DNA of 64,000 bases, taken from NCBI GenBank assembly GCA_937899245.1, contig CALDKB010000047.1, positions 8,884-72,883 on the forward strand. The letters are read 5' to 3'. The notes under the pieces are model-generated. The model searched no databases, was not told the origin of the DNA, and saw only the letters and a list, made by a program, of their open reading frames with translations. Made by a program: the position numbers and the translations under genes. This DNA is from an uncultured Bacteroidales bacterium (GTDB lineage: Bacteria > Bacteroidota > Bacteroidia > Bacteroidales > ML635J-15). Numbering within the stretch: position 1 is the first letter of the stretch; each line of letters begins with the position of its first letter. Shown here piece by piece: positions 34,203-39,508 of this stretch.

Positions 34203-35927
34203 CTAAAGCTTGGAGAATTTGCAAGTGTATGCTTTTTCTCCGTTGTACATCCTGACAAAGTAAAGTCCAGCAGCTATGTCAGAAATATCTATGTAGCCGC
34301 CTTCCCATTTTGATGACGCATCTGTACTTATAGATTTTACTGTGGAACCTTGCTGGTTGATGATTTCAATTTTATAGTTTCCATCATCTACATTGTTCGA
34401 GATGAAGTAAAGTATTTCAGTAGCAGGGTTCGGGAAGCACTTTATGTATCCGTTTCCGACTGTGAAACCATTGGTGTTAACAGGATTCTCGTCTTCGCTT
34501 ATTACAAATACATGTGGATCTGGTTCTCCGATGAATGGATGTGTTTGAATCTGTCCGAATTCTGTTTCCGCCTTTATGTAGTAAGCAACAGTTTGCCCAT
34601 GTTGCAGGCCTTCAAAAGTAAAAGAATATTGGTCTTCGGCAGTATTTGTCATGTCGGCGGAGATAAATTCCATGCTGTCGATGCTGAAGAATATCTTTGC
34701 ACTTGTGATGGCGCCGCCTCCATTGAAAGTGTAAATTTTAGCATCTATGGTATATTCATCGGCATAATCAACAGTGTCGAGAATAGGGAAGTGTGCGATT
34801 CTTAGCATATCGAAACGAGGAACCTCGTGAGTGCGGCAGTGCAAGGCGTCTGTGCTTTCCCATGAGTTTGAGTTGGGCGTAAAGCCAATGACTTCATATC
34901 CTGGCATAGCGGCTTCGTAGACGGCCTTAGCGTTGGCGTTGTTGGTGGCATCGTTGTTCGGGAATGCAAGATAAACCTTGTTGTTAAGAATAAGCGAGTT
35001 GGAATAAGGCTGTCCGTTGGGACTATATGTTCTGAAAACCTGATACTTGTTTCCGTAAGAACTAGTTTGATTTGCCCAGTAGTCGGCCATTGCCTCGTAG
35101 TCGGCATAGTGTGAATTGGATGCAGGGACCTTTGTAATCAAGACTTTGTCAACATCGAGGAATTTTCCCCAGCAGTCGATATGAGCAATGTAGTCGGCAA
35201 GCGGATCGTCGAGGTGCATATAGTTTGTAATGCCGAGGTATTCTTCGAATATTTCATCGAGTTGTGCTTGTGTGTAATTGTAGTTCTCCTGATTTTCAAC
35301 ATCGAGTGAAGCGGAACACGATGCAGCAACACCAAGTCCGTCGGTCATGTAGTTTCCGCCAGTATGAACAACCTGCATTCCAAAAACCGATTTGTCAAAA
35401 TACGAGCCGAAGATGTTTGTTATTTCATCGTCGTTTGGACGAGGCCGATTGTAAACGTAGTCAATCATACCAACTTGCTTGTCACCGTATTCGATGAACC
35501 ATGGACTGTAGTCGCGACACCAGTACGAGTCGATAGATGAGTTTACAAATTTAAGGTGGTTCATGTTGACGCCGTTGTTTTGCAATGTTGTTCTAACATT
35601 TGCTTGTAGGTTTGATGCGCAAATAAGGTAAACTGTGTCGTCCTCAGAAAGTTCTGCAATAAGCGAGTACGGAATTCCAAAATCGACACTGCCTCCATAC
35701 CAGCTTGATGGAGCGGCGACAATTACACCTTGGTTCGGTTCAAATTCAGCTATGCTTCTCGGATTCTCGGGTGGAGCAGTCACTATTAAGTCGCGAGTGT
35801 TCTTTCGCTCCGATAGCTCTTCCCAACGTAAAGCGTGGTATTTGCCTTGTAGCTCGTGCGGAATCTCTTGTGCTAACATAAATGTTGCACATAAAGTTAT
35901 GATTGATGTGATGAGTATTTTTTTCAT
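34203..35927 (-). CDS. Porphyromonas-type peptidylarginine deiminase (PPAD)-like enzyme with a T9SS C-terminal domain (574 aa)
   Basis: PAD_porph/agmatine-deiminase motifs DSYWCRDYSPWF, YNRPRPNDDE, TGGNYMTDG, HIDCWGKFL, QPYSNSLILNN and DALHCRTHEV. These are followed by an Ig-like region (HPFIGEPDPHVF) and a T9SS CTD (CFPNPATEILYF...GLYFVRMYN...KFSKL). Confidence 0.8.
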   Translation of the reverse strand: MKKILITSIITLCATFMLAQEIPHELQGKYHALRWEELSERKNTRDLIVTAPPENPRSIAEFEPNQGVIVAAPSSWYGGSVDFGIPYSLIAELSEDDTVYLICASNLQANVRTTLQNNGVNMNHLKFVNSSIDSYWCRDYSPWFIEYGDKQVGMIDYVYNRPRPNDDEITNIFGSYFDKSVFGMQVVHTGGNYMTDGLGVAASCSASLDVENQENYNYTQAQLDEIFEEYLGITNYMHLDDPLADYIAHIDCWGKFLDVDKVLITKVPASNSHYADYEAMADYWANQTSSYGNKYQVFRTYSPNGQPYSNSLILNNKVYLAFPNNDATNNANAKAVYEAAMPGYEVIGFTPNSNSWESTDALHCRTHEVPRFDMLRIAHFPILDTVDYADEYTIDAKIYTFNGGGAITSAKIFFSIDSMEFISADMTNTAEDQYSFTFEGLQHGQTVAYYIKAETEFGQIQTHPFIGEPDPHVFVISEDENPVNTNGFTVGNGYIKCFPNPATEILYFISNNVDDGNYKIEIINQQGSTVKSISTDASSKWEGGYIDISDIAAGLYFVRMYNGEKAYTCKFSKL

Positions 35928-35940
35928 TTGCTTATTTTAT

Positions 35941-38900: not shown

Positions 38901-39508
38901 ATTTCGTTGACATCGTTCTCAGATGTGTATTTAACCCTGACGGTGATTTCCGTAAAGACATTTAGTCGCTTTTGTACTGGATTGTAGTGGAACGGGAAGA
39001 AGCGAACCGATGTTCCACGAACGTCCCTGATGCAGAATGCTTCGCTGTTGTTGGCCTCGATAGAAGGGACAAAAGCGTCGGTGCTATAGCATTTGCCGTA
39101 TTCATACGGAATTGTTGACGGATCGATGTTTCGGCTTATGGAACCTTTTGACGGTGCAACGTTAATGTTTTCCAGTGAGATGAAGTCGCTGCTTATAACT
39201 TCGGCAACCGCTTTGCCTTTTGATGGAATGCATACGGAAGTAGCAAAATATGGAACATCAGGGATGCCCTTGTCCATGTAGTTGATACCATCCGGTGCTG
39301 TTACGACTACTTCTGTGCCGTTCGGTGTTTGAACTTCGTTAAGCGAGTATGCGTTAACGTTTAGCTTGAGAATAATTTCGCGATTTGTTTCGCTTAAAAT
39401 CTCAATTGTAGAATTCTGCGACTTGTCGTTGTCGATGACATTGTATTGTTGCGATTTGGCAAATAATGCTAATGGCATTATGGCAATAAATAACAATATT
39501 TTCTTCAT
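35993..39508 (-). CDS. peptidase C25 (gingipain-like cysteine protease) with CARDB-like repeats and a T9SS C-terminal domain (1171 aa)
   Basis: C25 features: MLIICKDTYSSAMNDFITWKREKG, YILLVGD, the catalytic-type GHGD (ACYIGHGDIEEW) and VISVACVNGDF. Two CARDB-like repeats, a C-terminal adhesin/MAM-like module, and a CTD FPNPANKNAYVNL...GMYIVKANI...LSVIR. Confidence 0.85.
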   Translation of the reverse strand: MKKILLFIAIMPLALFAKSQQYNVIDNDKSQNSTIEILSETNREIILKLNVNAYSLNEVQTPNGTEVVVTAPDGINYMDKGIPDVPYFATSVCIPSKGKAVAEVISSDFISLENINVAPSKGSISRNIDPSTIPYEYGKCYSTDAFVPSIEANNSEAFCIRDVRGTSVRFFPFHYNPVQKRLNVFTEITVRVKYTSENDVNEINESYTKVDDFESIYSRFFINYDKKNTRYTQLQDGHPGRMLIICKDTYSSAMNDFITWKREKGIETEMALMSTVGTTAANVQSYITNYFNAHSDLAYILLVGDAADVPSNITTSGSGYWAETKTSDNQYAYLVGNDHYADAFIGRFSGESVANIQNQVRKVINYEKELDTDATWLTNAYGSASNEGGGSNGHNQGNGNESDMAHMGYIQTDLENYGYSVTRVNQASSGYTSDVSATSAAFNAGVGVACYIGHGDIEEWYSTGYNNSHVNSLTNTYKLPYVISVACVNGDFNGNTCFAEAWARASKNGNPTGSIAFLGSTINQDWEPPMTAQDEMIDIIVESIDNNIKRTIGGISFNGYFRMIQDYPSNSNSGDGPNTADTWTIFGEPSTMFRSKTPQEMTITHPSVQTVGQTTFTVNCDANDALIALTRTVDGQVVILGYAYASNGTAEISHAAITEPCTLKLTATAYNKVTYQADITVIVPEGPYVTFGNYTINDSESNNNGTADYNETFKLNMTLNNVGVENANDVNMTISSTNSDITISDNSESFGTIAADNSLTKDNAFEMNIRNGIVDQSVIQFDYSITCSNSDSHTGVFNITANAPKPAVEFVNIDDSENGNNNGMLDPGETVKLKFRISNNGHASMGNGNAILSSNSGNISLLTDEASVNTLSAGNNRIVTFEASVSETAEIGTSASFSVNFNAGMYSASTNINLAIGLQIEDWESNSFDSYAWENNSSTPWRIVSGSEAYDGNYCAKSGAIGNGTYSANTKTELSITIDVINNDNVEFYKKVSCENPGSGWYSDEVSYYDFLAFYIDETMKDQWAGTSDTWSLQTYPVTAGSHTLKWSYEKDYSTTGGSDCAWIDNIKLPAHSNSVTSIHTDMDFAEISMGVFPNPANKNAYVNLNLTDDSNVSINIYNSVGQLVKTISNIALKSGENYILIETSSLNAGMYIVKANIGDNTICRNLSVIR

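Follow-up and report, generated by a model that had tools for sequence, protein, structure and literature searches.

A linked pair of genes for an RgpB-type protease and a PPAD-type deiminase, predicted to act in sequence, in an uncultured rumen Bacteroidales bacterium

In the gum pathogen Porphyromonas gingivalis, one enzyme cuts proteins after arginine and another converts the new end-arginine to citrulline. The genes of these two enzymes, an Arg-gingipain (Rgp) and the P. gingivalis peptidylarginine deiminase (PPAD), are presumably not adjacent in that species. The stretch of DNA analyzed here (hereafter the window; 64,000 nucleotides (nt) of contig CALDKB010000047.1 from an uncultured Bacteroidales bacterium) encodes a gingipain-like C25 cysteine protease and, directly behind it, a close look-alike of PPAD. 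This raises the question whether the two-step chemistry of P. gingivalis is encoded as a genetic unit in a bacterium outside its usual host range. We consider it probable, at about 0.8, that the products of the two genes work together outside the cell as a two-enzyme module, in which the protease would cleave after arginine and the deiminase would then act on the new C-terminal arginine.

The two genes are co-oriented open reading frames (ORFs) on the minus strand, separated by 65 nt and encoding proteins of 1171 and 574 amino acids (aa), as claimed in an earlier note that was made from the letters of this DNA alone (Table 1). All eight PPAD motifs quoted in that note are found in the translation of the 574-aa protein, namely DSYWCRDYSPWF, IDYVYNRPRPNDDE, TGGNYMTDG, HIDCWGKFL, QPYSNSLILNN, MPGYEVIG, DALHCRTHEV and PFIGEPDP. 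The PPAD-like architecture that it proposed, comprising a catalytic domain, an immunoglobulin-like (Ig-like) domain and a sorting domain of the type IX secretion system (T9SS), is borne out by the Pfam domains (PAD_porph at residues 59-370 and Por_Secre_tail at residues 498-570) and by the predicted fold.

Among solved structures, those of PPAD match the deiminase at E = 1e-103 over residues 50-486, while the best agmatine deiminase reaches E = 5e-4. Pairwise alignment with PPAD gives 45% identity over 421 positions. The 12 residues checked, W127, D130, R152, R154, T180, G182, Y233, H236, D238, C239, N297 and C351, are needed in PPAD (Goulas et al., PMC4487231), and all 12 are identical in the window deiminase, where they correspond, in the same order, to W136, D139, R161, R163, T189, G191, Y246, H249, D251, C252, N310 and C364. 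In PPAD, Cys351, His236 and Asn297 are catalytic, Asp130 and Asp238 anchor the guanidinium group and Cys239 is a gatekeeper. Arg152, Arg154 and Tyr233 grip the free C-terminal carboxylate, which makes the enzyme an exo-deiminase, and Tyr233 of the Michaelis loop bars any C-terminal extension of the substrate (PMC4487231). The catalytic residues are thus retained as Cys364, His249 and Asn310, the guanidinium anchors as Asp139 and Asp251 (together with Trp136 and the gatekeeper Cys252) and the carboxylate-binding residues as Arg161, Arg163 and Tyr246. The deiminase was modeled with AlphaFold2 on a 55-sequence alignment; this prediction (mean predicted local distance difference test (pLDDT) 84.9) consists of a catalytic propeller and a C-terminal Ig-like domain and superposes on PPAD (4ytb; Foldseek) with a template modeling (TM) score of 0.94 and a root mean square deviation of 2.1 Å over 436 columns, Ig-like domain included.

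Public annotations of these deiminases read 'agmatine deiminase family protein'. An identity as agmatine deiminase (AguA) was rejected: the NCBIfam equivalog model TIGR03380 reaches 44.7 bits, its cut-off being 381.8, and solved agmatine deiminases share 17-19% identity with the model at TM scores of 0.73-0.79, against 0.94 for PPAD. A FastTree phylogeny of 171 rows, comprising 169 ingroup sequences and, as root, the two short PAD_porph paralogues of the same genome, with no bona fide AguA sequences, places the window protein inside the PPAD-containing clade of 169 rows with a support of 100 relative to these paralogues. Both paralogues lack the two carboxylate-binding arginines. PPAD itself lies nested 13 nodes deep, and its common ancestor with the window protein spans 135 of the 171 rows. 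The protein is clearly assigned as a PPAD-type deiminase, with a predicted activity on C-terminal arginine.

The upstream protein comprises the Pfam domains Propeptide_C25 (residues 30-225), Peptidase_C25 (242-592), Peptidase_C25_C (598-680) and Por_Secre_tail (1092-1165). In a comparison with solved structures, RgpB scores E = 6e-95, its prodomain E = 7e-35 and Lys-gingipain only E = 8e-15; the window protease and RgpB are 40% identical across 425 residues. The roles of the Cys/His dyad and of the arginine-selecting S1 pocket, in which Asp163 is the charge anchor, have been described for RgpB (PMC9559808). E152, D163, G210, H211, G212, V242, C244, Q282, W284 and M288 of RgpB are all identical in the window protease. 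The Cys244/His211 dyad and Glu152 correspond to Cys487, His454 and Glu387, and the conserved pocket, Asp163 included, predicts arginine specificity. The inhibitory loop K121-Y135 of the prodomain aligns unshifted with that of RgpB, so that Arg126 keeps the same residue number. In RgpB, this arginine enters the S1 pocket and mirrors the specificity of the enzyme (PMC4138498); it is conserved in the linked and fused homologues described below. We clearly assign the protein to the RgpB-type members of family C25, with cleavage of Arg-Xaa bonds predicted.

Seven C25 genes are present in the genome, and the window protease is the most RgpB-like of their products. At the position of D163, the four alignable paralogues carry Asn in three cases and Asp in one. 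One further C25 gene in the genome (L029; G000:C28:29845-30861) also keeps the Rgp-type S1 Asp; it has no deiminase gene nearby, and its product is just 30% identical to both RgpB and the window protease. Between the Ig-like and the sorting domain, the window protease carries a beta-rich extension (residues 682-1091) for which Pfam yields merely sub-threshold CARDB/NEW3 matches and a single-sequence model reaches a pLDDT of 37.6. A PDB sequence search with residues 911-1080 gave no match, and Pfam detected no haemagglutinin (cleaved-adhesin) domains such as those of RgpA and Kgp. In three rumen relatives (L001, L002 and L006), the protease match is interrupted between residues 1070 and 1092 by about 270 extra bases.

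Both proteins carry an N-terminal hydrophobic signal sequence and a type-A sorting domain (Por_Secre_tail / TIGR04183). The genome (2.98 Mb in 62 contigs) encodes the T9SS machinery, with SprA at 2650 bits and GldM/PorM at 270 bits. The nearest loci, 75-80% identical, stem from rumen metagenome-assembled genomes (MAGs) of water buffalo, yak, red deer and cattle. For the elongation factor Ts (EF-Ts) encoded in the window, the best named relatives are Paludibacteraceae MAGs, at 57-62% identity, and Porphyromonas is absent among the best 120 EF-Ts matches. On these grounds, a Porphyromonas origin of the contig was ruled out and the host is identified as a rumen Bacteroidales bacterium. None of the four points on which the earlier note had seen its reading at risk, namely phylogeny, carboxylate-binding residues, host and protease specificity, came out against it.

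An exhaustive, profile-free search over 1.84 billion cluster representatives returned 474 clusters that match the deiminase at E ≤ 1e-30; the best 150 all exceed 308 bits across the catalytic and Ig-like domains, and P0204, the representative nearest to P. gingivalis PPAD, is 56% identical to it. Residues R152 (169/169), R154 (168/169) and C351 (169/169) are conserved in the ingroup of the tree. In three metagenomic proteins (P0124, P0127 and P0132) that share a 14-row clade with the window deiminase, the PPAD-type domain heads T9SS proteins of 1185-2095 aa with PKD, SprB, Ig_7 and glycine-rich domains. For an order-wide view, 401 genomes were drawn evenly from the order of the window and searched for the deiminase at E ≤ 1e-60. 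PPAD-type genes occur in 115 of them (62 of 236 genera), i.e. in 29% of the sampled Bacteroidales species, and the loci fetched encode both carboxylate-binding arginines (117/117) and the catalytic Cys (118/118). The earlier suggestion that the citrullination module reaches beyond its usual host is supported for this rumen bacterium, while the implied rarity of such a genome does not.

The order of protease and then deiminase recurs in all 11 rumen relatives in which the whole upstream gene is present and, cut by a contig end, in two more. The same pair is found in lineages with deiminases only 44-52% identical (L014, L015 and the contigs of P0022, P0045, P0030, P0047 and P0060), with intergenic gaps down to 1 and 6 nt and with other flanks, e.g. 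an Rnf operon in place of rpsB-tsf. No linked protease was found beside P0067, P0071, P0079, L016, L017 and L019. In addition, 8 kb on each side of all 119 order-wide PPAD-type genes were searched locally for Rgp-like genes. Of the six linked genera, two have the protease first and directly adjacent, two have the deiminase first with gaps of 4-98 nt and two have 2-6 kb between the genes. Linkage in both gene orders thus extends over at least six genera and several metagenome lineages, and every linked protease retains D163, H211, C244, Q282 and M288.

Among the long representatives scanned, at least five protein clusters (P0202, P0226, P0170, P0201 and P0234) contain single-chain C25::PPAD-type fusions. 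All five contain Propeptide_C25, Peptidase_C25 and PAD_porph, and all but one contain Peptidase_C25_C as well; P0188 is a fragmentary member of this type. The S1 residues and Arg126 are intact, and the deiminase part falls in a different clade of the tree from the window deiminase. The five fusions have no terminal Por_Secre_tail. Three of them (P0202, P0170 and P0201) end in a similar short motif (...KFY.V/I.A...), which in P0188 lies farther from the end and which may be a different sorting tag.

The two enzymes also co-occur. With a threshold of E ≤ 1e-80 and two candidates scored per genome, an Rgp-like protease is found, among the matches listed, in 112 of the 115 genomes with a PPAD-type gene and in 80 of the 286 others. 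The T9SS protein SprA is present in 383 of the 401 genomes; the presence of a T9SS therefore does not explain this association. Functional coupling classically shows itself in genes that stay adjacent while their surroundings change, that pair in either order, that fuse and that are present together in genomes. All of these signs are seen here, and they suggest that Rgp-like protease and PPAD-type deiminase are functionally coupled.

A route for the module can be proposed from these features. Both proteins would reach the periplasm by Sec and then cross the outer membrane by the T9SS through their C-terminal sorting domains. The protease would be made as a zymogen, with Arg126 of the prodomain filling the S1 pocket. 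After activation, the Cys487/His454 dyad would cleave proteins after arginine, which Asp403 in the S1 pocket would select. The deiminase may then bind the new C-terminal arginine, with Arg161, Arg163 and Tyr246 on the carboxylate and Asp139 and Asp251 on the guanidinium group, which Cys364, His249 and Asn310 would hydrolyze to yield citrulline and ammonia. As to its purpose, our guess is extracellular processing of proteins and peptides with release of ammonia in an anaerobic, protein-rich habitat.

Several observations weigh against this reading. RgpB T209 on the floor of the S1 pocket is Ile in the window protease, the sole difference among the residues checked. The deiminase tree is rooted on the two paralogues of this genome alone, and the Fisher's odds ratio of 96 for the co-occurrence is uncorrected for phylogeny. 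Linkage is the exception: a co-oriented Rgp-like gene lies within 8 kb of only 13 of the 119 PPAD-type genes, in 6 of 62 genera. Moreover, PPAD also deiminates free L-arginine, so that peptides are not the sole possible substrates. The deiminase could, then, act mainly on extracellular free guanidino compounds (free arginine, agmatine) and supply ammonia for nitrogen or pH, its position beside the protease reflecting no substrate-product relation; the fold and catalytic core that it has in common with agmatine deiminases, and the roughly 89% of order-wide PPAD-type genes without an Rgp-like gene within 8 kb, fit such a role. We nevertheless hold it to be unlikely, as conservation extends to the residues that grip the C-terminal carboxylate and the peptide carbonyl before it (both arginines in 117/117, R152 in 169/169), the arginines are missing from the two short paralogues of the genome, fusions and both gene orders recur, and the AguA model remains far under its cut-off.

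The pair might instead reflect maturation, with the Arg-protease removing the N-terminal pro-peptide of the deiminase and perhaps processing other T9SS cargo. Deiminase residues 21-41 are modeled as disordered, and Arg45 aligns with Arg43 of PPAD, which directly precedes Ala44, the first ordered residue of mature PPAD. This correspondence is weak, since the consensus at that column of the 55-sequence alignment is Lys, and Arg45 as an Rgp-type cleavage site was set aside as a weak lead only. A maturation link would be compatible with sequential action on substrates, and is more of an addition than a rival; as the sole explanation we rate it slightly lower again. Least likely of all, and in our view very improbable, is that the adjacency has no functional meaning and that two common T9SS cargo genes stand side by side, perhaps co-regulated. 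The genome does hold seven C25 genes and many T9SS cargo genes, with another cargo gene directly upstream on the opposite strand. Against this, lineages with deiminases only 44-52% identical still have the pair, in unrelated contexts, the reverse gene order occurs elsewhere and fusions exist; if a co-oriented C25 gene falls within 8 kb by chance in about 2.3% of genera, which is a rough estimate, six or more of 62 genera has P ~0.003. Sequential action of the two enzymes, cleavage and then deimination, remains our preferred reading.

The hairpin and U5 between the two genes, from which the earlier note had suggested that they may be transcribed separately, are present: on the coding strand, an 11-bp stem with a 5-nt loop runs into TTTTT. 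The stem-loop and U-run are conserved in 10 rumen relatives, in which both arms of the stem carry compensatory changes and the loop varies too, and L032 and L036 have a hairpin and U-run of unrelated sequence at the same position. The hairpin is absent from the lineages with gaps of 1-6 nt, and none was found in the 110 nt preceding the deiminase start in L002, L006 and L011. A scan of the region for sigma-70-type promoters gave no more matches than shuffled sequence, and scans of this type are ill-suited to Bacteroidota promoters. The deiminase ATG starts 14 nt past the U-run, too close for a promoter to fit between hairpin and gene, and this makes read-through or attenuation likelier than separate transcription. 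We thus prefer to read the hairpin as a partial terminator (attenuator) inside an operon, or as an element of RNA stability, rather than as the border of two independent units: the genes probably form one transcription unit, in which the hairpin would lower and not abolish read-through into the deiminase gene.

Table 1. Features of the protease-deiminase locus, with positions in the window
Feature	Position	Strand	Basis
RgpB-type C25 cysteine protease gene, 1171 aa (P0002), T9SS cargo	35993..39508	-	ORF, Pfam, RgpB 1cvr E = 6e-95
Protease signal peptide (~residues 1-19, ...LFAKS|QQ)	39452..39508	-	Read from translation; cleavage site inferred
Protease N-terminal prodomain (residues 30-225), inhibitory loop K121-Y135 with Arg126	38834..39421	-	Propeptide_C25 E = 1e-33; 4ief_A E = 7e-35
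C25 catalytic domain (residues 242-592)	37733..38785	-	Alignment to RgpB; roles PMC9559808
Protease key residues Glu387, Asp403, His454, Cys487, Gln524, Trp526, Met530	Asp403 38300-38302; His454 38147-38149; Cys487 38048-38050	-	RgpB alignment
C25 C-terminal Ig-like domain (residues 598-680)	37469..37717	-	Peptidase_C25_C E = 1e-15
Beta-rich ~410-aa protease extension (residues 682-1091), none in RgpB	36236..37465	-	Weak CARDB/NEW3-like matches only
Protease T9SS type-A C-terminal sorting domain (residues 1092-1171)	35996..36235	-	Por_Secre_tail E = 4e-11, TIGR04183
Intergenic hairpin 35946-35972 (11-bp stem, 5-nt loop) and U5 35941-35945	35941..35972	-	Sequence; kept in relatives
PPAD-type deiminase gene, 574 aa (P0001), T9SS cargo	34203..35927	-	ORF, PPAD 4yt9 E = 1e-103
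Deiminase signal peptide (~residues 1-20, ending ...LAQ) and low-confidence pro-region (21-45)	35793..35927	-	Translation; pLDDT <50 at 21-41
Deiminase catalytic domain (~residues 50-373)	34809..35780	-	Pairwise alignment to PPAD; roles PMC4487231
Deiminase key codons Arg161, Arg163, Cys364	Arg161 35445-35447; Arg163 35439-35441; Cys364 34836-34838	-	Alignment to PPAD
Deiminase Ig-like domain (~residues 374-480), including PFIGEPDP	34488..34808	-	All-beta model segment superposing on PPAD Ig-like domain
Deiminase T9SS type-A C-terminal sorting domain (residues 498-574)	34206..34436	-	Por_Secre_tail E = 2e-11, TIGR04183

Around the pair, the gene divergent from the protease gene (39804-44345, plus strand) encodes a T9SS cargo protein of 1513 aa, in which seven CHB_HEX_C_1 / Fn3_assoc repeats are combined with a Por_Secre_tail. 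Between this large cargo gene and dnaK lie ORFs of 521 and 290 aa without Pfam match (44998-46563 and 46717-47589, minus strand). A 284-aa ORF, likewise without Pfam match (33348-34202, plus strand), is convergent with the deiminase gene, their stop codons abutting with zero gap. At 25785-29583 (minus strand), a carboxyltransferase and the beta subunit (OAD_beta) of a Na+-translocating decarboxylase are encoded, which resemble components of methylmalonyl-CoA or oxaloacetate decarboxylase sodium pumps. The context genes named in the earlier note were recovered as a HydABC-like [FeFe] hydrogenase set (50043-54233) and a GH2 beta-mannosidase-like gene (8464-11082).

Reviews up to August 2026 present PPAD as a unique enzyme with homologues in P. 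gulae and P. loveana only; one of them, from 2025, attributes the statement on these homologues to Gabarrini et al. 2018. Within the genus Porphyromonas, the only one that it covers, a phylogenomic study of 2023 confines gingipains to the gingivalis-gulae-loveana trio, and according to a 2019 study the role of PPAD in the physiology of P. gingivalis is unclear. In the literature searched, with most subscription journals outside it, we found no description of a PPAD-type enzyme from Bacteroidales outside Porphyromonas, of a linked pair of protease and deiminase genes or of a fusion. Both enzyme families are known; a genetically linked Rgp-plus-PPAD system in a rumen bacterium other than Porphyromonas, and the breadth of the family, are apparently unpublished. 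We lean slightly towards a wider interpretation, in which anaerobic Bacteroidales and neighboring phyla would use the Rgp/PPAD pairing as an ancient, widely distributed module for extracellular peptide processing, encoded separately, in operons of either gene order or as fusions, rather than a virulence invention of P. gingivalis, and in which rumen and gut would be a large, unrecognized source of peptides with C-terminal citrulline. A specificity-intact enzyme in 29% of the sampled Bacteroidales species, together with its almost constant co-occurrence with an Rgp-like protease and the repeated linkage or fusion of the two, would turn attention away from damage to the host and towards normal bacterial physiology. 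For biochemistry, both enzymes become available from non-pathogenic sources, and the comparative data can be used to ask what purpose C-terminal citrullination serves. The findings also suggest that gut and rumen microbes could make citrullinated peptides, which bears on ideas about the origin of anti-citrulline immunity.

Compared with known systems, the window deiminase has the same order of signal peptide, pro-region, catalytic, Ig-like and T9SS sorting domains as PPAD (PG1424; PDB 4YT9, 4YTB, 4YTG, 5AK7 and 6I0X), to which it is 45% identical with a TM score of 0.94, and it shares the catalytic triad, the guanidinium Asp pair, the gatekeeper Cys and the Arg152/Arg154/Tyr233 set. It differs in the Michaelis loop, which is VQDPNGEYINHV in PPAD and LDDPLADYIAHI in the window deiminase, and in having Ser for PPAD His196. 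Its gene, presumably unlike that of PPAD, lies directly behind an Rgp-type protease gene in an uncultured rumen Bacteroidales bacterium, and in the tree it is not the sister of PPAD. With AguA (TIGR03380; PDB 2JER and 6NIB) it has in common the guanidino-modifying propeller fold and Cys/His/Asp chemistry, whereas AguA is cytoplasmic, lacks Ig-like and sorting domains and is 17-19% identical.

The protease resembles RgpB (PDB 1CVR and 4IEF) in its prodomain with Arg126, its Cys/His/Glu catalytic domain, its Asp163 S1 pocket and its Ig-like and T9SS sorting domains; it differs in being 1171 aa long, with an additional beta-rich stretch of about 410 aa ahead of the sorting domain, and in the T209 to Ile change. 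The C25::PPAD fusions, in contrast to the window pair, are one polypeptide, belong to a different deiminase clade and end in a tail other than Por_Secre_tail. They nevertheless combine the same two modules, protease and then deiminase, with the S1 pocket, Arg126 and both carboxylate-binding arginines intact.

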